From: a virus
Virus genome (UHGV): UHGV-1353844
Strand: one strand, 5' to 3'
Length of the DNA: 64,000 bases
The notes under the pieces were generated by a model. It was not told the origin of the DNA, did not search any database, and was given only the letters and a program-made list of their open reading frames with translations. Shown one piece after another: positions 17,573 to 45,848 of the stretch. The position numbers and the translations under genes are program-made. Position 1 is the first letter of the stretch, and each line of letters starts with the position of its first letter.

Positions 17573-18076
17573 TTAACTAATCTTCAAATCTCTTAATGTG
17601 CCGGTTGATTTCATCACGTTTTGGAAAGCAGTGCTAATGTTAGAGGTCCAGTAATAATGTTGACCATTAATAACCTGCTGATAGGCTACCGTACAAGTGT
17701 TGCCGCCTAGATTTACGGTGATGTTAGAAGCTCTCCCACCTTGTAAATAGACCGCTAAACTTGGTTTTGCATCAGCAGCCAATGTGATCAATAGTAGTTG
17801 GATACCAATAAGTGTGCCTACGCCGCAGCTACCAGGATTCTGAATAGTCCCTTTATTTTTCTGCGCTAACGGCCAGTTTGGTCCCACCGCACCCCAAAAT
17901 TTAGCCATTGAATCGCTATATGCAGCAGTTGCGATTTTACAGCCAAGAGATCGGCCCACCATTTGACTCATCATAAAAGGTCTACCCAATCCTAATTTAC
18001 TACCAGCAGCACTCATCCATTGTTCGCCCGTTTCGTTCTTGGCCGAAGAACCGACCCATCCAGATGCTACCCCCAT
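17573..18076 (-). CDS. fibre-associated protein sharing N-terminal ~45 aa with the Gly-rich protein (possible tip adhesin variant)
   Basis: GWVGSSAKNETGEQWMS N-terminus paralogous to 18137-18919. Confidence 0.55.
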   Translation of the reverse strand: MGVASGWVGSSAKNETGEQWMSAAGSKLGLGRPFMMSQMVGRSLGCKIATAAYSDSMAKFWGAVGPNWPLAQKNKGTIQNPGSCGVGTLIGIQLLLITLAADAKPSLAVYLQGGRASNITVNLGGNTCTVAYQQVINGQHYYWTSNISTAFQNVMKSTGTLRDLKIS

Positions 18077-18136
18077 TATACCCTATCCTTTTGAAAGGTG
18101 TGAGGAGGGGAGTGAGTATCCCCATACTTTTTCAAA

Positions 18137-18919
18137 TTAAACACGTGAACCATATATTGCACCTACTGCGTCCCATCTTGGCGCATTACCTCTAACGGCT
18201 GCACCAGCGGCTCCGCCGTTATATTCTGTACCGTTACCATGAGTATTACATCTTCCTCCAGCAGCACCGACATTACCACCCGAACCGCCTGTATATGCAC
18301 TAAGAGACCCCTCACCAACAGATCCTCTACCAGGAGCGGAAATAGTACCAGCAGCTGCACCGGAACTCATATGTGAGGAAGACCCACCAGCACCGAATGG
18401 GCGACCACCGCCACCACCAAATATTAGTCTACCCCTGTTACCGCCGCCACCGCCGCCACCGCCTCCGGCAATAGCGCCACGGTTGGTTATACGCAGTCTG
18501 TTTCCTATTCCGTTCTGTATTGCGGTTCCACCTGCACCGCCTGGTGAGTTAGAACCGCCGTTGCCTCCTCTGCCGTATACTGTAACCCCAGGATTGATGA
18601 TGAGTGTAATATACGAATTTGGAAGATTGCTAGGGAATTCTAAACAAGGAACCCCGCTACTATAAGACACTAAATCCCCTGTAATGGTCACAACGACAGC
18701 ATTAGAGCCTATAGAACGTAAATAGTTAATAAGCGTATCTTTATTGTAATTGTGATTAGCCCCGATCGAATACTGAACCTCTTTTGATTTTCCCGCCAAT
18801 TGCGACATCCAGCCTGGAACCGGCACACCAAGTGTGCGCATCGCGCCAGACATCCAATCGTTACCAGTTTCAGCTTTTGCTGAAGAACCAATCCAACCAC
18901 CTACGCCGACAACTGCCAT
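18137..18919 (-). CDS. glycine-rich protein immediately downstream of tail fibre (possible adhesin or tip protein)
   Basis: poly-Gly tracts (GGGGGGGGGN, GGGGRPFGAGG); start overlaps fibre stop (TAATG). Confidence 0.6.
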   Translation of the reverse strand: MAVVGVGGWIGSSAKAETGNDWMSGAMRTLGVPVPGWMSQLAGKSKEVQYSIGANHNYNKDTLINYLRSIGSNAVVVTITGDLVSYSSGVPCLEFPSNLPNSYITLIINPGVTVYGRGGNGGSNSPGGAGGTAIQNGIGNRLRITNRGAIAGGGGGGGGGNRGRLIFGGGGGRPFGAGGSSSHMSSGAAAGTISAPGRGSVGEGSLSAYTGGSGGNVGAAGGRCNTHGNGTEYNGGAAGAAVRGNAPRWDAVGAIYGSRV

Positions 18920-21900
18920 TAGGATCTTCCTTTAATTTCGTTAACCTCTTGACGCAACGCTTTCATACCCTCTACTAACAGCGCAATAACGCCATTGTAG
19001 TTTAGACGTAAACGTTTTTCGCCTGAAATGGCATCATCATCCTCAGACACAAGTTCAGGTAACGCTTCTAATGCGTCTTGAGCAATTAGACCTACCGAAG
19101 TGTTCCAACCGTCGTCTGGATGTTGAACCTCGTACAGATAGCCGGTAAGCGCTTCTAACCGATCCAAAGCCTTATCCAGCTTCACCAGATTACGTTTGTT
19201 GCGACGGTCAGAACGAATCTGTACGTCGTTAAACGAACCGTTACCGTTGCTAGAAATGTTATGACCAAAGGTTACTTGACCGTTAGAGTTATTAAAATAC
19301 AACGGACGTAGTCCGTTCCAGGAACCCGTTGCGGCTTGTCCGGAGTCGGTTACTAAGAAATAGGTATTGGCACCATCATTACGTAAAATGAAACCGCAGC
19401 TACCGTAAGCGATTCGGAAATCAGCATACTTCGTAACCAGTTTACCGTTAACCGTTAAATCGCCAGTGACAGTACCGCCGCTGTTCTTCAAAAACAGCGC
19501 ATCAATCCAGCCTGCAAATCCTGACTTATTGATGTATAAATTTCCATCATTTGCCAGAATGCCGCCACCCGGCGTCTTGAGAGGCTGACTCACATTTTGC
19601 AGCGTCAGCACACCATTCAATTGACCGCCAGATAATGGCAACGCCCCAACATCCGCAGCAGTTGGCTTGTTTTTCGTATTGTAAGCGCGACGCCAACCTG
19701 GTGAGTAAGCATCACCGTTATTTACGTAGATAAACTCCGCATTAGTGAGTGCGCCGCCGACGCTCGTCGTTGTGGGGGTCGTTATACGGATCGTGTAGTT
19801 GTTTGCGCTGTTACTAATCACTTCTATAACAGCCCCAGCTAACGGAATAACACCACAACCCGTCTCGCTGTTCGGTATGGACGCACTAGCAGCATAAGCC
19901 CATGCACAGCGAGCAACCCATGATTTTGTGGTAAACGCGCCGTTATTTTGCAATAACGTCACTAGCTGTGCTGTAGTTATTGCGCCGCCGTCTTTACCAG
20001 TCTCCAACCAACCAGTGGGCGAAGCCGGACAACCTATATCGGCAGGCCCTAACGATATATTTCTAGTACCGTCAAATGCGATACCGTTAATGGTACGCGC
20101 TGTCTGCAACTTTGTTGCCGTGGCTGCGTTTCCGGTAGTCGACTGATTACCCGTCTGGTTTACACCGGGCAGACTAATGTCTTGCGAACCGTCAAAGTTA
20201 ACACCGCCGATCTTACGTGCTGTTTGTAACTTAGTAGCGGTCGCTGCATTACCTGTCGTATTCTGGTTGCCTTGCTGGTTAACCCCCGGTAAATTGATAT
20301 CCCCAGTACCGTCAAAGGTAACGCCGCCGATTCTGCGAGCGGTTTTCAGTTTCGTCGCGGTAGCGGCATTGCCAGTAGTATCCTGATTACCGGTGGTATT
20401 TACACCAGGAATACTGTCACGGGCAGTATAAACTTGTGCCCAATCTGACCACGGCGCATCAGCCGTATCGCGTCGACTACGAATATAAACGGGTGCGTGT
20501 GCACCACTCGTGCCCGACCAACCAATTAACAACTCACCTTCGCCTAGCGCATTAGCACCACCTAAGTGCAGCAAGTTACCATAGGCGGTTGGATAACCGT
20601 TATTGTAAACTTCGTACATCTGGATACCAGGTGTACCCTTGTTCGACCCGGTCAGAGCGGTAACCCGTCCACGACCTACCAAGGTGTTGATATTGATGTC
20701 TCCAGAGCCATCGAATTTCACACCGTTAATATTTCTGGCGGTTTGAAGTTTAGTGGCTGTCGCGGCGTTACCTGTGGTGTTTTGATTACCTTGTTGGTTA
20801 ACACCTGGGAGGTTAACGTCGCCGCTGCCGTCGAAAGCGACCCCGCCAATTCTACGCGCAGTCTGGAGCTTAGTGGCGGTTGAAGCATTGCCGGTTAACT
20901 CACCTGCTAACCCTTTTGCAAAGGTCTGTTTCTCTGCCCAAGTGTGGGCTGCGTTCAACACAGGCATCTGTCGTGGCGTAATCGTACGGCTACCCTTCTC
21001 GCCAGCGATACGTACTGCAAAGAAGCGATAGTTAGCAGTAGACACTGTACCGCGCCAGACCAACATACTCCGACCAGTACCGGTGTCCTCTGACGCCCCT
21101 ACGAGAATACTGACCAAGTTACCGTCAATAACACCCCAATCCATTCCCGCAGGAATGTTTTTCATGGTATTCAACGGTGTACTTATCATCTGGCCAGGAA
21201 CGAAATCGAAGGTTTGCCAGTCTAACGGATCGACCTTGGCAGCAACCCCACCGATCCCTAAAGCCAACGGGAGTGAATAGGATGTGAAAATCTCTCGCCA
21301 TTCGCTCCAGGCGTTTCCTGTACGAATTCGTTGGAACTTGCGACCTTTCGTAGTTGCGCCTGTACCGTATGTGGTATAATTTTGTTCAACGCCTGAACCG
21401 TCTAAGCGTAAGGTAACTTCGCAAACACCTAACAAGGTTGCGCCAGCAGAGTCTGTTAACGGACCGTCAGTAGCCTCACCGGTAACACTAAAACGACCAG
21501 GTTTAGTTAAGTCATTAAAGCTACCCTTATAGTAGGCACCGTCTACCTGATACCCAACTTGAATCCAATCTTCCCACTGTGGATTAGACGCATCCCAAGT
21601 CGCAGTCAACCCACGGACATACATCGTACCACGACGAGTGGTGTAACGTTGCATACGTCCGTAGAGACCACCTTCCATTACTTCTAATACACCTTGAGCA
21701 TTACCACCTTCTTCGGGATAATGACGATCGAACGTCGCAAGAGAAGAACTGGAGTTACGCCACTGACCCATGTGTTCAACACCACCTAAAGTGTTAAGGT
21801 CAATAGTGGTGGAGAGCGGACGGTTCGCGGTAGTTGTCATTCTCCAGGGCGACCAAGGGCCGTTAGTACCGTTCCAGGTTCCTGTTAAACGACGAGTATA

Positions 21901-23385
21901 GACGTTACCGTTACGTATGGTAAAACGTTGGCTTCCGCTGTAGTTACCTGCTTTGAATACCTCTAAGTAACCAACTGCATCGTCTTCCGGGAAGTTCTTT
22001 GCAATTGTTGCATTCGTAGACGTGGCTTTAGACCAGACACCCATAAACGCTTCGACTGGGCCGAAGGTGTTGATATCCGCATCTACTGCCATTTCCCCAT
22101 TAAACTTCAAATACGTCTCTGCTGACAACCCGATGTTCTTCGCGAAGGTGACTTTATCTGGAATATCGGCACCGTTAGAACTGCGTTGCATAGCACCCGC
22201 AGCTTTATCAACAGTGGTTTTCAAACCCAGGAAGTTAATGATATCTGCCGTCGACCCTTTCGCTAACAAATCACGCGCAGTCGAGGTGAAATCCGCTAAC
22301 CCTACCTGATTACTACCGGTAAAGTAAGGGAGTTTGTTTGCAGCGGTGGTGACTGCGGCAATCGCTGTCAGTAACGGACTTAACGGCTGTTTACCCGCGA
22401 GTTGGTTCGTCATCGTTGTCGCAAAGTTAGGATCGTTTCCTAACGCAGCTGCAATTTCTGATAACGTATCTAACGTCTCGGGTGAAGAGTCCACTAATTC
22501 AGCAATCGCTTGCCGTACCCATGCGGTCGTTGAGACGCTCGTGTCGTTAGAATCCGAAGCAGGTGTTGGTGCTTTTACCACACCGGTAAAAGTTGGGTTG
22601 TGACGGTTTGCTTTTAACTGCAAATCTTCATTTAACTGCTTAACCGTTGACGGCGTAGCCGCTTCAGTAACAGAGTCACTGCTTAAGGTATTATTAAGTC
22701 TAACGATACCTTTACTGGTCGTTGTTGCATCAACGTTACCTTTTGCAGCGATTTCTTCTGCACGCTTAGCCGCTGCCTCAGAACGCGTTGCCGCATTCTC
22801 TGCGGTTTCTTTGTCTGTGGTAACTTGCGTTGCTGTAGCTTCTACAGCGGCTTTTGACGACTCTACCGACGCGACAGCTTCGTTAACTGCCGTAAGCGAC
22901 TGTTCGACTTGACCGGCTTGTGTGGCAACAGTTTCTGCTTTCTTCGTAACGGTAGTCACCGCTTGTGTGACGTTGGCCTCGCTTGCCGCTACCGCTTGCG
23001 CTTTCTCATTAACGGACACAACCTGGGTATCTACCGCCGTTTTCGCGGCTAACACTTCAGTGTGTTTTGTACCGACTTCAGTTGCTTTTTCGGTTACAGT
23101 TTGCGCTTGTTGAGCAACTGTAGCCGCAACGGTGTCAGTTTGTTGTTTTGCTGTTTCTGCTAAATTCTTTGCTTGTGTAGCCTGAGTTGCAGCTTCTTGT
23201 GATTGTGTTGCTGCTGTTTGTGCATCAGACACCGCATTACGTACGGTGTCAATATCTGCAACGATCTCACGGACAGGTAACTTATAATCTTTCTCATCCT
23301 TGGAAAAAAGTAAAACACCTTCACCTATATCCCCGGTGTATGGACGTAAATCGTGTAAACGAATTTTCTTTACCGCTTTAGCCAT
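18919..23385 (-). CDS. long tail fibre protein with N-terminal anchor, A/T/Q-rich coiled coil, five NTTGNAATATKLQTAR repeats and C-terminal intramolecular chaperone (S74-type autoproteolytic) domain
   Basis: 1488-aa ORF; C-terminal SDRRNKRNLVKLDKALDRLEALTGYLYE segment; repeat motif typical of phage fibre repeats. Confidence 0.85.
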   Translation of the reverse strand: MAKAVKKIRLHDLRPYTGDIGEGVLLFSKDEKDYKLPVREIVADIDTVRNAVSDAQTAATQSQEAATQATQAKNLAETAKQQTDTVAATVAQQAQTVTEKATEVGTKHTEVLAAKTAVDTQVVSVNEKAQAVAASEANVTQAVTTVTKKAETVATQAGQVEQSLTAVNEAVASVESSKAAVEATATQVTTDKETAENAATRSEAAAKRAEEIAAKGNVDATTTSKGIVRLNNTLSSDSVTEAATPSTVKQLNEDLQLKANRHNPTFTGVVKAPTPASDSNDTSVSTTAWVRQAIAELVDSSPETLDTLSEIAAALGNDPNFATTMTNQLAGKQPLSPLLTAIAAVTTAANKLPYFTGSNQVGLADFTSTARDLLAKGSTADIINFLGLKTTVDKAAGAMQRSSNGADIPDKVTFAKNIGLSAETYLKFNGEMAVDADINTFGPVEAFMGVWSKATSTNATIAKNFPEDDAVGYLEVFKAGNYSGSQRFTIRNGNVYTRRLTGTWNGTNGPWSPWRMTTTANRPLSTTIDLNTLGGVEHMGQWRNSSSSLATFDRHYPEEGGNAQGVLEVMEGGLYGRMQRYTTRRGTMYVRGLTATWDASNPQWEDWIQVGYQVDGAYYKGSFNDLTKPGRFSVTGEATDGPLTDSAGATLLGVCEVTLRLDGSGVEQNYTTYGTGATTKGRKFQRIRTGNAWSEWREIFTSYSLPLALGIGGVAAKVDPLDWQTFDFVPGQMISTPLNTMKNIPAGMDWGVIDGNLVSILVGASEDTGTGRSMLVWRGTVSTANYRFFAVRIAGEKGSRTITPRQMPVLNAAHTWAEKQTFAKGLAGELTGNASTATKLQTARRIGGVAFDGSGDVNLPGVNQQGNQNTTGNAATATKLQTARNINGVKFDGSGDININTLVGRGRVTALTGSNKGTPGIQMYEVYNNGYPTAYGNLLHLGGANALGEGELLIGWSGTSGAHAPVYIRSRRDTADAPWSDWAQVYTARDSIPGVNTTGNQDTTGNAATATKLKTARRIGGVTFDGTGDINLPGVNQQGNQNTTGNAATATKLQTARKIGGVNFDGSQDISLPGVNQTGNQSTTGNAATATKLQTARTINGIAFDGTRNISLGPADIGCPASPTGWLETGKDGGAITTAQLVTLLQNNGAFTTKSWVARCAWAYAASASIPNSETGCGVIPLAGAVIEVISNSANNYTIRITTPTTTSVGGALTNAEFIYVNNGDAYSPGWRRAYNTKNKPTAADVGALPLSGGQLNGVLTLQNVSQPLKTPGGGILANDGNLYINKSGFAGWIDALFLKNSGGTVTGDLTVNGKLVTKYADFRIAYGSCGFILRNDGANTYFLVTDSGQAATGSWNGLRPLYFNNSNGQVTFGHNISSNGNGSFNDVQIRSDRRNKRNLVKLDKALDRLEALTGYLYEVQHPDDGWNTSVGLIAQDALEALPELVSEDDDAISGEKRLRLNYNGVIALLVEGMKALRQEVNEIKGRS
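20040..20420 (-). repeat. imperfect ~120-bp tandem DNA repeats inside fibre gene encoding the GNAATATKL repeats
   Basis: three successive units ending ccgtcaaa(g)ttaacaccgccgat / ccgtcaaaggtaacgccgccgat. Confidence 0.6.
20693..20895 (-). repeat. second block of the same fibre repeat
   Basis: units gccatcgaatttcacaccgttaat / gccgtcgaaagcgaccccgccaat. Confidence 0.55.
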
Positions 23386-27473: not shown

Positions 27474-27521
27474 ATCAAAAAAAAATAAAACACCTACCGC
27501 CCATAGAATCGGGCGGTAGGA
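27474..27521 (-). terminator. rho-independent terminator
   Basis: cctaccgccc-atagaatc-gggcggtagg hairpin preceded by A9 run on plus strand. Confidence 0.7.
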
Positions 27522-27586: not shown

Positions 27587-27961
27587 TTATTCGGTTAATT
27601 CTCCACACAACACAACGTCGATACCAAACATCATTCCCACTTCTTGAAGTTTGTTCGCCAGTAAGTGTCGATGACAAAACTTACCTGCGGGACAATAACA
27701 CATCAAAACCAAGTCATCGTGTCTGAGTAACGACACTAAAACTTCGGCATCAGTATCTAACAGTCGTTCGAGTTTGTACAAATACTTTATCGTGTACTCA
27801 CGTTCAGCGGCAGCGTCCTTGACAGAAGATTTATACGCCATTAGGAAATCCCAGTCGGGGGCGAGTTCCTTTCGACCTGACTTCACGGTGATATCCACCG
27901 CGTGAAATCCTTTCTGCTTAGCTAACCGCCACTTAGCGAGTTGTAGCGTCCAGATACGCAT
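27587..27961 (-). CDS. small conserved protein with CYC...C.HR motif (DUF488-like, tentative)
   Basis: LVLMCYCPAGKFCHRHLLA segment. Confidence 0.35.
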   Translation of the reverse strand: MRIWTLQLAKWRLAKQKGFHAVDITVKSGRKELAPDWDFLMAYKSSVKDAAAEREYTIKYLYKLERLLDTDAEVLVSLLRHDDLVLMCYCPAGKFCHRHLLANKLQEVGMMFGIDVVLCGELTE

Positions 27962-28158
27962 TAGGAGCGAGTCTGCGATTCAGCCATCAACGCACAACTT
28001 TTTACAGCTTGTGCATGAAGCTCTGTACCCGGTGTATAATCCTTTATACAGTCCTGGTACAATTCACGTTTCGTTTCTAAAGTACGGCTATCTAACTCAG
28101 CACTTGCGAGTGCCCCTGCAATAACGATAAAAACTAGAATCGGCAACCAAATTTTCAT
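27961..28158 (-). CDS. small secreted protein with two Cys
   Basis: signal peptide MKIWLPILVFIVIAGALASA; weak paralogy to 28155-28367. Confidence 0.45.
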   Translation of the reverse strand: MKIWLPILVFIVIAGALASAELDSRTLETKRELYQDCIKDYTPGTELHAQAVKSCALMAESQTRS

Positions 28159-28367
28159 TTCCCTCCTCCCATTCGATTAGCGTATTCCGTACACGCCATT
28201 ACTAATTCAGCGTAGCGTGGATTATCTACAGTAGTGCCTGACATACATTCACGATAAAGGGAGTCTCTACGTGATTCGTCAGACGTCTTAACGTAGAACA
28301 TCAACATCGCTACAATCAACGCAGTTGAAACGATTGCTGAAATGATATATCCGTCATTTATTTTCAT
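28155..28367 (-). CDS. small single-pass membrane protein with two Cys
   Basis: TM segment IISAIVSTALIVAMLMFYV. Confidence 0.45.
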   Translation of the reverse strand: MKINDGYIISAIVSTALIVAMLMFYVKTSDESRRDSLYRECMSGTTVDNPRYAELVMACTEYANRMGGGK

Positions 28368-28884
28368 CTATAAAACACCAAGGTTCCGGATAAAAGTCTG
28401 TAAGTAAATCAACGTAAAAACTACGTAAATTTGTTAGCCTTATAACACACCCTAACAAATCCTGATCAGTGCGATGATAAATCACCACAGAAGTTTCTGA
28501 TAATCGTTTAACATGTATAAACCCATCATCTTTTATTCTGCGATACAGCATCTTAAAATCGATTTCACCTACCGTATCAGGTTCACCTACGACGGAAAAC
28601 CGAATATGTGGCCGTTCGCTACCTTGGGTTGATAAAAATTCCTCTGTCGTCATTGCATAAACCTGCCCTAAAAAGGATAGGTGTGGAATTACTTCTTTAC
28701 GCAACTCGCTGCTCGAAATCTTAGCAAAAACCTGACGTTCCGTTAAGCGCATTAATCCACCTAATCTCTTCAAGTCTTTGTTATATCTCAAAAAAAGAGC
28801 CACTTTCTCGTCATGCGTAATAGGCGGCCATTCGACCGCCTTTGCACGACATTGCTTAAACCAACCCACAAGTCGTGCTATCAC
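28354..28884 (-). CDS. hypothetical protein
   Basis: 176-aa ORF. Confidence 0.55.
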   Translation of the reverse strand: MIARLVGWFKQCRAKAVEWPPITHDEKVALFLRYNKDLKRLGGLMRLTERQVFAKISSSELRKEVIPHLSFLGQVYAMTTEEFLSTQGSERPHIRFSVVGEPDTVGEIDFKMLYRRIKDDGFIHVKRLSETSVVIYHRTDQDLLGCVIRLTNLRSFYVDLLTDFYPEPWCFIDENK

Positions 28885-30960: not shown

Positions 30961-31482
30961 CTACGGGTTAAAAGGTAGCGGCTTGCAATCCCGCTTTTTC
31001 AACTCTTCTACTAACTCAGGTAATGTACACCAACGTTTAAATTTGTTGTTGGCTTTAAAGTGGCCGAGAATCTCCTCTACGCGTTCAATAGACCACTTCC
31101 CTTTACCCACGTTATCCAAATCTTTACGTACCGAGAGCGTCTCAATGGTAAACGCTAACTCTGAACTATCCGAGTGGTCGTACAACAATCTTACTGGTGT
31201 AGATTGGTGTAGCGTAACACGCCACCCTGACTCTTTAGCCCAGTAGACGTCTTTAATTCGACCACTGACGTCAATTACGGAACTGATATAAGTCCAGTCA
31301 TCTTCCAGTTTATTCTCTTCAGCAGTTAATGCTTCTTCTAATCGTAAAGAGTTAGGAGTCGGAATCCACCAACCGTATTTACTGTAATAGTCGTCTACTA
31401 CAGTAATACCTTCGTAATACAGATATTGTGTTTTTGTATTAACGAAAATTTCATCGCCAATTAAGACAGCGTTTATCTTCAT
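30961..31482 (-). CDS. hypothetical protein
   Basis: 173-aa ORF. Confidence 0.6.
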   Translation of the reverse strand: MKINAVLIGDEIFVNTKTQYLYYEGITVVDDYYSKYGWWIPTPNSLRLEEALTAEENKLEDDWTYISSVIDVSGRIKDVYWAKESGWRVTLHQSTPVRLLYDHSDSSELAFTIETLSVRKDLDNVGKGKWSIERVEEILGHFKANNKFKRWCTLPELVEELKKRDCKPLPFNP

Positions 31483-31967
31483 CGTAAGTGCTTCCTGTAA
31501 AATAAGTCGTACGTTTGTGATGAAGCTGTATCAATCGAACCTACTAAGGGAATGATATTCTTTTCGGTTATACCTGTTGCCCATGCTGCTCGAGCAAAAC
31601 CTTGACCCGAACCCGTTGCCCAAACCGTGTTTTTATTCAGTACACGAGATTCAAATTTACCCTCTAGCAGCCCGAGCCAGTGTGTTTCCTTAGCTGTAAA
31701 AATGATAACCTGATCGAAAAGTTGTTCTTTTTCGATAAGATCTTTAAATATCTCTTCAACCTTAGTTCGCTTTTCTTCGATCAAATATTTTTCTGCTCCG
31801 GACATTATCGTCGTTTTCCAGAGATCCGAGTCCAATACACGTTCCCCAGTGTAAACAACGAATTTGTTTTTGTATTTGTGTAATTTAGGAAGCTCTTTAA
31901 CTGTGCCGCCGTAATCAACCAACCGATCAGCTAAAATGTAATCCTTTGTTACTAATACCGTTGTCAT
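31479..31967 (-). CDS. HslV-like proteasome-type threonine peptidase (tentative); start ATG at 31967 giving Met-Thr-Thr N-terminus
   Basis: MTTVLVTKD N-terminus, ATGSGQGFARAAW resembles the HslV GSGG.YA.AAA motif; SD GAGGTG. Confidence 0.45.
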   Translation of the reverse strand: MTTVLVTKDYILADRLVDYGGTVKELPKLHKYKNKFVVYTGERVLDSDLWKTTIMSGAEKYLIEEKRTKVEEIFKDLIEKEQLFDQVIIFTAKETHWLGLLEGKFESRVLNKNTVWATGSGQGFARAAWATGITEKNIIPLVGSIDTASSQTYDLFYRKHLR

Positions 31968-31980
31968 CACACACCTCGAA

Positions 31981-32020
31981 GAAAAATAAAAGTACCCTCT
32001 CTCCATTAGGAGAGAGGGGC
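31981..32020 (-). terminator. rho-independent terminator
   Basis: ccctctctcc-atta-ggagagaggg hairpin, A-run before on plus strand. Confidence 0.65.
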
Positions 32021-32025
32021 ACTGC

Positions 32026-32295
32026 TTAAATCTTACGACTGCTACCGTAGCAGCCACGACCGGCTGTCGTTTTCGCAGCACTGACAGGTGCTAACGCAGC
32101 CATCGTACCATCGGCCTTAACAATGTGTAAGTTACCTGCGCGAACCAGACCTTTAAAGGTAATCTTCACACCCTTGCGTAAACTCTTCACTTCATACCCG
32201 TCGAGTTTGAGTGTTTTAACTTTTTCAGGTTTACCTTCTTCGTAATAGGAAAGAACATTACCCGCACGTTTCTCAACAATGTAAATCTTAGCCAT
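32026..32295 (-). CDS. small Lys-rich protein
   Basis: 89-aa ORF with own promoter-like motif upstream. Confidence 0.5.
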   Translation of the reverse strand: MAKIYIVEKRAGNVLSYYEEGKPEKVKTLKLDGYEVKSLRKGVKITFKGLVRAGNLHIVKADGTMAALAPVSAAKTTAGRGCYGSSRKI

Positions 32296-32767: not shown

Positions 32768-32808
32768 GTAAAATAAATACACCCTCTCTCCAAACGGAGA
32801 GAGGGGCA
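32768..32808 (-). terminator. rho-independent terminator, stem nearly identical to 31981-32020
   Basis: ccctctctcc-aaac-ggagagaggg. Confidence 0.65.
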
Positions 32809-45269: not shown

Positions 45270-45848
45270 TTATTTCGTTGTCTTTGTTTCCGTCTTCGCG
45301 ACGACCTGACCTGATTTCTCAAGTTTCTTCTCGACAACTTTGGTAGCAATCTCCAACGACTTGTAAGCCAATGTTTTAATCGGCCACGTTGCGAATACTA
45401 CCAGTCCAAACAGCGGAAGTAAGGATACAAACAACACTTCCATGCTGTCTTTTGGAAAGTTCTGATGCGTGTCGTACGCTAAGAAGCCTGTCACGACCAC
45501 AGTGGCGAGTGCAAGCAGAACAATAATGAACTTCTGTGCACCGGCAAGTTTTGGCCACAGCGTCAACATCGTTTCTTTGCTTACTTCGTCACCTAAACTC
45601 TCTACAGCATTTGTGGCTTGCTGCTGAAAGTTTTCCGCCATCTTTCCAATGTTCTCAAGAAGCGTTGGACGTAGCTCCGACAGAATCTTTGTACCTGACC
45701 GCGTTACGTCTACAGAGACGTCGTCACCGAAGTTGTCTTTGAGAATCTTAGACAGTTCTTCGGACTGCTCTTTACTTAACTTTCTGTTTCCTGCTTGGAT
45801 AAGAATGTCAAGAATTGCGGCTGACACGTCTTGTGTTGGTTGCGACAT
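45270..45848 (-). CDS. membrane protein with two C-terminal TM helices
   Basis: FIIVLLALATVVVTGFLAY and VLFVSLLPLFGLVVFATWPI. Confidence 0.55.
   Translation of the reverse strand: MSQPTQDVSAAILDILIQAGNRKLSKEQSEELSKILKDNFGDDVSVDVTRSGTKILSELRPTLLENIGKMAENFQQQATNAVESLGDEVSKETMLTLWPKLAGAQKFIIVLLALATVVVTGFLAYDTHQNFPKDSMEVLFVSLLPLFGLVVFATWPIKTLAYKSLEIATKVVEKKLEKSGQVVAKTETKTTK

Follow-up and report, generated by a model that had tools for sequence, protein, structure and literature searches.

Two adjacent small genes in the virus genome UHGV-1353844 are real and conserved, and each encodes a protein with an export signal and a conserved pair of cysteines. The domain that their 70-aa and 65-aa products share is predicted to act in the periplasm of the infected cell, and the cysteine-hairpin pair constitutes a small family that is new but familiar in type. 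The window, by which we mean the whole stretch of 64,000 nucleotides that was analyzed, is by sequence relationship part of an SPN3US-like jumbo phage (Salmonella phage SPN3US is a phiKZ-like Seoulvirus); SPN3US gp115 is 62-64% identical to a 230-aa protein flanking the locus, and SPN3US gp120 is 58% identical to the 124-aa protein encoded after the pair.

Three ORFs were confirmed between positions 27587 and 28367, all on the minus strand, an orientation that an earlier sequence-only reading had missed. The 70-aa gene is transcribed first, followed by the 65-aa gene and the 124-aa gene, and the features of the locus are as follows.

28354..28884, minus strand: 176-aa ORF upstream, in the same unit as the 70-aa gene, its position conserved in the clade
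28155..28367, minus strand: 70-aa gene; short N-terminal tail, predicted anchor at residues 8-26 and C-terminal domain of ~44 residues with LYREC41-x17-C59
28161..28169, minus strand: Shine-Dalgarno sequence GGAGGAGGG of the 65-aa gene, read from the sequence, within the final codons (MGGGK) of the preceding 70-aa gene
27961..28158, minus strand: 65-aa gene; predicted Sec signal peptide at residues 1-20 (ALASA/ELDS, the slash marking the cleavage site) and mature domain of 45 residues with LYQDC37-x17-C55
27587..27961, minus strand: 124-aa DUF488-N3a gene with the signature C88-Y-C90-PAGKF-C96-H97-R98 (Pfam PF22751, phrog_2450)
27474..27520, minus strand: intrinsic terminator closing the transcription unit, a stem-loop CCTACCGCCC-gattctat-GGGCGGTAGG followed by a U-rich tract

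The 70-aa, 65-aa and 124-aa genes are translationally coupled and stand at the end of one transcription unit. As read from the sequence, the first two overlap by 4 nt at an ATGA junction and the last two by 1 nt at TAATG, and the upstream 176-aa ORF overlaps the start of the 70-aa gene by 14 nt. The terminator hairpin (27520..27493, minus strand), ~65 nt past the stop codon of the 124-aa gene, has an 11-bp stem with 8 GC pairs and a fold z-score of -4.7. Terminator-like hairpins also occur further upstream at 32805..32782 and 32018..31995, and the positions of such hairpins suggest a unit of ten genes and ~4.4 kb ending at 27.5 kb. The genes upstream encode unannotated proteins and then a methyltransferase, an acetyltransferase-like protein and a thymidylate kinase; those downstream encode a DUF7941 virion protein, a tail-fiber protein, a 1001-aa tail protein, a 1488-aa long fiber and T-even-type adhesins. 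The 176-aa ORF had no matches in Pfam, PHROG or NCBIfam, and its identification with SPN3US gp117 or Stratton gp134 was ruled out when comparison revealed no similarity.

Selection at the locus was estimated by the Nei-Gojobori method (dS <=1.8), by which dN/dS is 0.07-0.17 in the 70-aa gene, 0.13-0.28 in the 65-aa gene and 0.04-0.20 in the DUF488 gene. Both cysteines are invariant in the 31 cluster representatives of the 70-aa protein and the 50 of the 65-aa protein, and likewise across the four sub-families that were aligned. Variation among the 70-aa representatives falls in the N-terminal tail, the juxtamembrane stretch and the C-terminal tail, sparing the anchor and core, and the 65-aa representatives vary more in the signal peptide and mature N-terminus than in the cysteine core. 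The order 176-aa ORF, 70-aa gene, 65-aa gene and DUF488 gene is retained in nine loci, that is, in all of the 220-230 kb relatives examined, and in a word-indexed search of 5.8 billion proteins the two small proteins turned up solely on contigs of 220-230 kb from close relatives. The 70-aa ORF is skipped by several gene callers and often goes without annotation; a family profile could allow it to be called consistently. That the small ORFs are chance frames, or their shared motif a coincidence, is extremely improbable, and for both small genes the chance-frame reading is ruled out: the omissions by gene callers and a modest profile-profile score between the sub-families would favor it, but the genes must be considered real because of their purifying selection, invariant cysteines, strong Shine-Dalgarno sequence and independent homologues, and because SPN3US has this architecture at the corresponding syntenic position.

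The exported two-cysteine domain and its relatives

The sequence-only reading had described a loose Y.[ED]C...C motif common to both small proteins, and closer inspection strengthens this, as the spacing is identical in the two (LYREC-x17-C in the 70-aa protein and LYQDC-x17-C in the 65-aa protein) and the cysteines are the invariant ones described above. The core can be written as LY-x-[ED]-C-x17-C, and a broader pattern common to both proteins as [LF][YF]-x-[EDN]-C, 17 residues, and A/V-V-x-x-C. Pairwise BLASTP between the two proteins gave E = 4e-4 and hhalign between their sub-families P = 2e-4 with a probability of 47%, so that by score the similarity is suggestive. AlphaFold2 models built with family alignments place helices at residues 4-41 and 52-67 of the 70-aa protein (pLDDT 79) and at residues 4-39 and 46-64 of the 65-aa protein (pLDDT 72). 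Both models have a helix/loop/helix arrangement with the first cysteine at the end of helix 1 and the second within helix 2, from which we infer a helical hairpin of ~40 residues whose two helices would be stapled together by a disulfide between the two cysteines. A CHCH (twin Cx9C) hairpin was considered and rejected, the domain having a single cysteine pair spaced by 17 residues and not two Cx9C pairs; Mdm35 appeared in the Foldseek search of the PDB with a non-significant E of 2.9.

Neither small protein has a match in Pfam, PHROG or NCBIfam or a sequence match in the PDB, and tblastn of both against 50,697 phage records returned no significant match. Foldseek searches of BFVD and the PDB with the 70-aa model gave nothing below E = 0.3, although a hairpin this small gives such a search little to work with. 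When 1.84 billion representatives were scanned exhaustively with a profile, only the five known clusters and one further protein, P0106, were recovered, and a search seeded with P0106 yielded no new members. By these searches the domain defines a narrow, previously unnamed family confined to few phage lineages.

Export was called by a hand-made analysis of hydrophobicity and of the residues at -3/-1, and this agrees with the earlier suggestion that the two adjacent genes encode a single-pass membrane protein and a signal-peptide protein. The 70-aa protein has an uncharged run of 21 residues (residues 6-26), and the Hessa dG summed over the 19-mer 8-26 within it is -1.7; the -3/-1 analysis found no cleavage site at the end of this hydrophobic run, which is therefore read as an uncleaved membrane anchor. 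One K/R precedes the anchor and 4 K/R and 4 D/E follow it, leaving its orientation ambiguous by the positive-inside rule. The N-terminus of the 65-aa protein (MK, an h-region of 18 residues and ALASA/ELDS) is a canonical type-I signal. A hydrophobic 19-mer scan of the 85 non-overlapped ORFs of the window flagged only the 70-aa protein and ORF 45270..45848, which encodes a 192-aa protein with two TMDs, and the 65-aa protein was detected separately through its N-terminal hydrophobic segment.

Relatives of the two proteins help to locate the domain. P0106, a singleton lipoprotein and the only homologue of the 70-aa protein outside the clade (36% identity over 50 residues, BLASTP E = 1e-10), carries a lipobox (LSAC/D) in place of the anchor. 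In E. coli, lipoproteins with Asp at position +2 stay at the inner membrane; the lipobox and Asp+2 of P0106 therefore point to export and to retention at the inner membrane, which is also the predicted location of the 70-aa domain. Textbook signal peptides (VAHA/A, FAHA/E) occur in the SPN3US, Stratton and Asesino proteins related to the soluble form, and gp95 of the Pseudomonas phage KoPa-4, a weak relative of SPN3US gp118, is a lipoprotein with the lipobox LTGC/E. Because this small domain is preceded by an anchor in some proteins, by a signal peptide in others and by a lipobox in still others, it is very probably periplasmic, and the domain of the 70-aa protein would be held on the periplasmic side of the membrane. 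The description of the pair as periplasmic disulfide proteins, already offered by the sequence-only reading, is thus the best available one, judged purely by the sequence evidence of export and anchor signals, the cysteine pair and relatives with signal peptides or lipoboxes.

Candidate counterparts in SPN3US, which the earlier reading had overlooked, are gp116 (SPN3US_0116; 69 aa, N-terminal anchor, F-x-x-C-x17-C) and gp118 (SPN3US_0118; 110 aa, signal peptide, F-L-E-C-x21-C). Their genes lie in the same syntenic block as the window pair, between the 230-aa phrog_6965 gene and the DUF488 gene, and in the Erwinia phages Stratton (gp138) and Asesino (gp134) a signal-peptide cysteine-pair form occupies the same block as the 65-aa gene of the window. 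A profile of the domain retrieves the window, SPN3US and Erwinia proteins together. The hhalign scores are weak, with probabilities against the 70-aa form of 16% for gp116 and 1% for gp118 and no match between the 65-aa form and gp118, but on account of architecture, motif and position gp116 is likely and gp118 plausible as a homologue of the window family. The SPN3US and Erwinia proteins share ~17-24% identity with those of the window and, unlike the 65-aa protein, the gp118-type proteins have a loop longer by 4 residues and a C-terminal extension of ~45 residues. The arrangement also differs, as the gp116 and gp118 genes are parted by the gene for a protease-like paralogue, gp117, whereas the window pair is adjacent, and in the Erwinia phages a 58-aa protein with two TMDs replaces the anchored cysteine-pair form directly upstream of the signal-peptide form. 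The gp118 form was found in 36 of the 50,697 phage records. In one study of SPN3US, gp118 is named solely as the gene that follows gp117 (PMC5694885), and a second SPN3US paper names neither gp116 nor gp118; beyond this passing remark the literature searched contained nothing on gp116, gp118 or gp120.

Possible roles in the envelope

The established facts fix the location of the pair and not its function, and Pfam, PHROG, NCBIfam, PDB and Foldseek searches provided no homology linking the cysteine-pair family to a function. The sequence-only reading had pointed to superinfection exclusion or envelope remodeling, and this is an analogy. The best-matching precedents are small exported phage proteins that guard an infected cell, and by analogy with them we favor an envelope-protective or superinfection-exclusion role as a tentative and speculative reading. 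Under this proposal the tandem paralogues would encode an exported helix-loop-helix hairpin of ~40 residues, with one disulfide made by DsbA between its helices from the two invariant cysteines. The 70-aa protein would insert N-in/C-out, so that its hairpin would sit on the inner membrane and face the periplasm, and the 65-aa protein would be exported by Sec and cut after ALASA to release a soluble periplasmic hairpin of 45 residues. Both hairpins would be produced from one tightly coupled transcript that also carries non-structural genes, and their site of action would be the infected cell's envelope, where they would most likely bind a target in the periplasm or envelope, for which the candidates are the cell-wall- or membrane-penetrating apparatus of an incoming phage or a host envelope protein. 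The outcome would be an infected cell shielded from secondary infection or lysis from without, in the manner of T4 Spackle/Imm and T5 Llp, with the DUF488 product standing outside this envelope function.

Genome position has some bearing on exclusion, since small exclusion lipoproteins such as Llp adjoin receptor-binding genes (PMC9586334). The tail-fiber module of the window starts ~130 nt past the DUF488 stop codon and ~500 nt past the small-gene pair; between the pair and this module lie the DUF488 gene and the terminator, and the fiber module belongs to another transcription unit. The closeness of the module to the unit of the pair lends exclusion weak support, with the terminator intervening and a genome of 220 kb, and across the nine loci variants of the small proteins showed no clear co-variation with the types of tail fiber downstream.

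The main rival is that the pair controls the timing of lysis. The anchored protein and its soluble paralogue would either regulate the phage holin, as T4 RI does, or receive a lysis-inhibition signal; alternatively, the 70-aa protein would itself be a small holin whose oligomerization is poisoned by the paralogue. We consider this rather unlikely. A protein with one TMD and a secreted partner do resemble T4 T/RI, and the single TMD of the 70-aa protein is a holin trait in its own right. The two-TMD 58-aa protein directly upstream of the signal-peptide form in Erwinia phages points in the same direction, and the MOI-dependent delayed lysis of phiKZ suggests lysis inhibition, the periplasmic component of which has not yet been identified (PMC12894885). 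However, the lysis genes of phiKZ cluster with its endolysin (PMC12894885), whereas the neighbors of the window pair are unannotated, metabolic or tail genes and include no endolysin, spanin or recognized holin. Among the ORFs scanned, which cover 15.3-37.7 kb and 43.5-50.1 kb, none carries a lysis annotation or matches an endolysin, holin or spanin family, and the pair has no holin or antiholin match in PHROG. A two-component spanin (Rz/Rz1) was also rejected: there is no lipobox, the signal of the 65-aa protein ends in ALASA/E and no cysteine occurs before residue 37. The 70-aa protein does not qualify as an i-spanin, as the ~44 residues past its anchor, modeled as a folded-back hairpin, are too short to span the periplasm.

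Alternatively, the two proteins may modulate a host envelope process that has nothing to do with other phages, for example by inhibiting a periplasmic protease or peptidoglycan enzyme, damping an envelope-stress pathway or blocking a surface appendage, and so keep the cell productive through the long jumbo-phage cycle. The same export and cysteine-pair evidence applies here, and the restriction to few lineages with fast evolution outside the core is common for host-interaction genes. Nevertheless, there is no nameable target and no similarity to known inhibitors, and we regard this role as doubtful. Sequence cannot separate envelope protection, lysis timing and modulation of the host envelope from one another. 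On a bolder reading, SPN3US-like jumbo phages would have in this pair an envelope module of their own, with a new disulfide-hairpin domain as its basis, that detects or blocks secondary infection from the periplasm. It would do so either through a new way of exclusion or by supplying the periplasmic arm that jumbo-phage lysis inhibition still lacks; we consider such a module rather unlikely.

Periplasm-acting proteins of phiKZ-like jumbo phages have been little described, and in the literature searched only the phiKZ lysis cassette was found. The window pair together with SPN3US gp116/gp118 provides a short and tractable list of candidates for envelope management by jumbo phages. The processes at stake include superinfection exclusion, the timing of lysis and carrier-like states, and the amber-mutant genetic system of SPN3US makes ideas about an envelope role testable.

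The DUF488 gene

The sequence-only reading had also drawn attention to the CYC..C.HR motif of the 124-aa protein and had named DUF488 as a family to check. Membership is borne out by a score of 44.1 bits against Pfam PF22751 DUF488-N3a (gathering threshold 27, E = 3e-11) and by a match to phrog_2450 (E = 1.4e-41). The protein contains the CYCPAGKFCHRH motif, and C88, C90, C96, H97 and R98 are invariant in the window, L011, SPN3US and Stratton proteins, which represent four lineages. On this evidence the motif is the plain signature of the DUF488 family (C-x-C-x5-C-H-R), a point that the earlier reading had not recognized. The family includes phiKZ gp151, PhiPA3 gp174 and SPN3US gp120, the phiKZ equivalence being taken from the annotation of the PhiPA3 record. 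E. coli YeaO also belongs to DUF488 (PF04343 / PF22751). Homologues occur in 284 phage records, mostly from jumbo phages of Vibrio, Pseudomonas, Erwinia, Salmonella and Serratia. The literature searched contained no characterized member of DUF488, and PDB sequence and profile searches found no structure.

A functional link between this protein and the small exported pair, as the earlier reading had implied, did not stand up to comparison. If the 70-aa, 65-aa and DUF488 genes formed one functional system, their translational coupling, their common terminator in this clade and an order conserved in all close relatives would be as expected. However, a gene of 335-370 aa parts DUF488 from the signal-peptide protein in SPN3US and the Erwinia phages, and in PhiPA3 (and in phiKZ, according to the PhiPA3 record annotation) the DUF488 gene, gp174 in the former, is found elsewhere, adjoining a UvsX-like gene without small exported neighbors. 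The distributions are also at odds, with DUF488 present in 284 phage records against 36 for the gp118 form and no significant match there for the small proteins of the window. The compartments would differ as well, the 124-aa protein having no export signal and so being assigned to the cytoplasm rather than the periplasm. A three-gene system is thus largely ruled out on distribution and, taken as a whole, very unlikely. Given this distribution, the separate neighbors and the missing export signal, the DUF488 protein is not considered a functional partner of the small proteins: its gene appears from comparison to be an ordinary cytoplasmic, broadly conserved jumbo-phage gene, tied to the pair by co-transcription in this lineage only, and it offers nothing distinctive or new.

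Comparison with known phage systems

Several characterized phage systems resemble the pair in part. In the T4 RI antiholin and T holin and in phiKZ gp142-gp143, a single-pass protein and a small secreted partner could meet in the periplasm, as the products of the window pair could. The window pair, however, lies outside a lysis cassette and has no homology to either system, and its periplasmic domains, unlike those of T4 RI/T, are paralogous to each other.

Llp of T5 and Cor, whose genes lie next to host-recognition genes (PMC9586334), are small exported phage proteins like those of the window, and the distant family members P0106 and KoPa-4 gp95 are, similarly, lipoproteins; neither window protein has a lipobox, though, and there is no homology to Llp or Cor. 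T4 Spackle is a helical periplasmic protein of 75 aa, exported by a signal peptide and containing a single disulfide, which acts against superinfecting phage by inhibiting the incoming tail lysozyme (PMC7677548). It differs from the window domain in forming a helical bundle of 75 residues rather than a hairpin of ~40, and the searches for homology between the two gave no PHROG or Pfam match and a best E of 1.9 with Foldseek against the PDB, in which Spackle was not listed. The 65-aa protein would nonetheless be Spackle-like in being small, with a predicted cleaved signal, two modeled helices and two invariant cysteines. At the level of the pair, T4 Spackle (gp61.3) and Imm provide soluble and tethered partners in the envelope, an arrangement that is conceptually like that of the 65-aa and 70-aa proteins.

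Distribution of the phage clade and its host-range module

When 50,697 deposited phage genomes were searched with megablast, none matched the SPN3US-like jumbo-phage clade to which the window belongs. In the complete genome of an E. coli urine isolate, a circular 'plasmid' of 221,873 bp represents it at 95.5% identity; in Enterobacter ludwigii, a 222,441-bp 'plasmid' does so at 90.5%. It also occurs as contigs of 220-230 kb in numerous assemblies of Salmonella, E. coli and Shigella isolates (records: L018, which is NZ_CP173450.1, together with NZ_CP134650.1 and L005-L011). Whether a phiKZ-like phage may be carried persistently, for example by pseudolysogeny or in a carrier state, merits attention.

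Two genes of the tail-fibre module are located as follows:

17573..18919, minus strand, tail-fibre module gene
18919..23385, minus strand, tail-fibre module gene

In this phiKZ-like phage, the module includes a 1488-aa long fibre as well as T-even-type families for fibre adhesin and host specificity (phrog_1121, phrog_2056). Relatives have other fibre genes at the same place, and the host-range module is therefore mosaic.

Annotation and surroundings of the Cys-pair genes

Several annotation pipelines, among them PGAP in the case of NZ_CP173450.1, fail to call the gene for the 70-aa anchored Cys-pair protein (28155..28367; loci L004, L007 and L018), which is nonetheless intact and under purifying selection. 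A different problem affects several deposited records of Salmonella phages SPFM5-20 (proteins P0096-P0105), in which gp116, in SPN3US the likely anchored counterpart, and gp118, a plausible signal-peptide one, are scrambled with their segments in permuted order, and tblastn matches fall into 3-5 pieces. The scrambling seems to be an artefact of how the records concerned were assembled or annotated.

In SPN3US and the Erwinia phages, the following genes lie around the Cys-pair genes:

L001 5008..6015, SPN3US gp119, flanked by the signal-peptide Cys-pair gene and the DUF488 gene
L015 4230..5342, Stratton gp139, at the same position
L015 3714..3890, Stratton gp137, 58 aa, directly upstream of the secreted Cys-pair gene
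L017 2269..2445, Asesino gp133, 58 aa, likewise directly upstream

The N-termini of gp119 and gp139 carry SAGLDS and TGGVDS, respectively, which recall a PP-loop ATPase motif; a Pfam search with this intervening gene returned no match, and the window's clade has no gene of the type at this position. The Erwinia-phage 58-aa protein combines a strongly basic loop with two hydrophobic segments, and its gene occupies the position held in the window by the anchored Cys-pair gene. Beside P0106, the lipoprotein homologue of the 70-aa protein, a metagenomic high-GC contig encodes one further small protein:

L002 551..802, 83-aa protein adjoining P0106

With its hydrophobic N-terminal segment and four cysteines, this neighbour may be a second exported protein.

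Hairpins and a further protein with membrane-like segments in the window

Two terminator-like hairpins lie in the window:

32805..32782, minus strand, stem-loop with T-rich tail
32018..31995, minus strand, stem-loop with T-rich tail

They are near-identical (CCCTCTCTCC-N4-GGAGAGAGGG, followed by the T-rich tail) and 787 nt apart. Because the second falls within the listed ORF 31479..32081, the GTG start of that ORF is probably too far upstream.

Besides the 70-aa and 65-aa Cys-pair proteins, only one ORF in the window has a membrane-like segment:

45270..45848, minus strand, 192-aa ORF with hydrophobic segments at 107-125 and 139-157

These segments follow a soluble N-terminal part of ~105 residues. 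The protein belongs to phrog_8722, a PHROG family with no assigned function, and its conservation is limited to SPN3US-like and Erwinia jumbo phages. In layout, with a large cytoplasmic domain ahead of the membrane part, it may loosely resemble the holin gp142 of the phiKZ lysis cassette.
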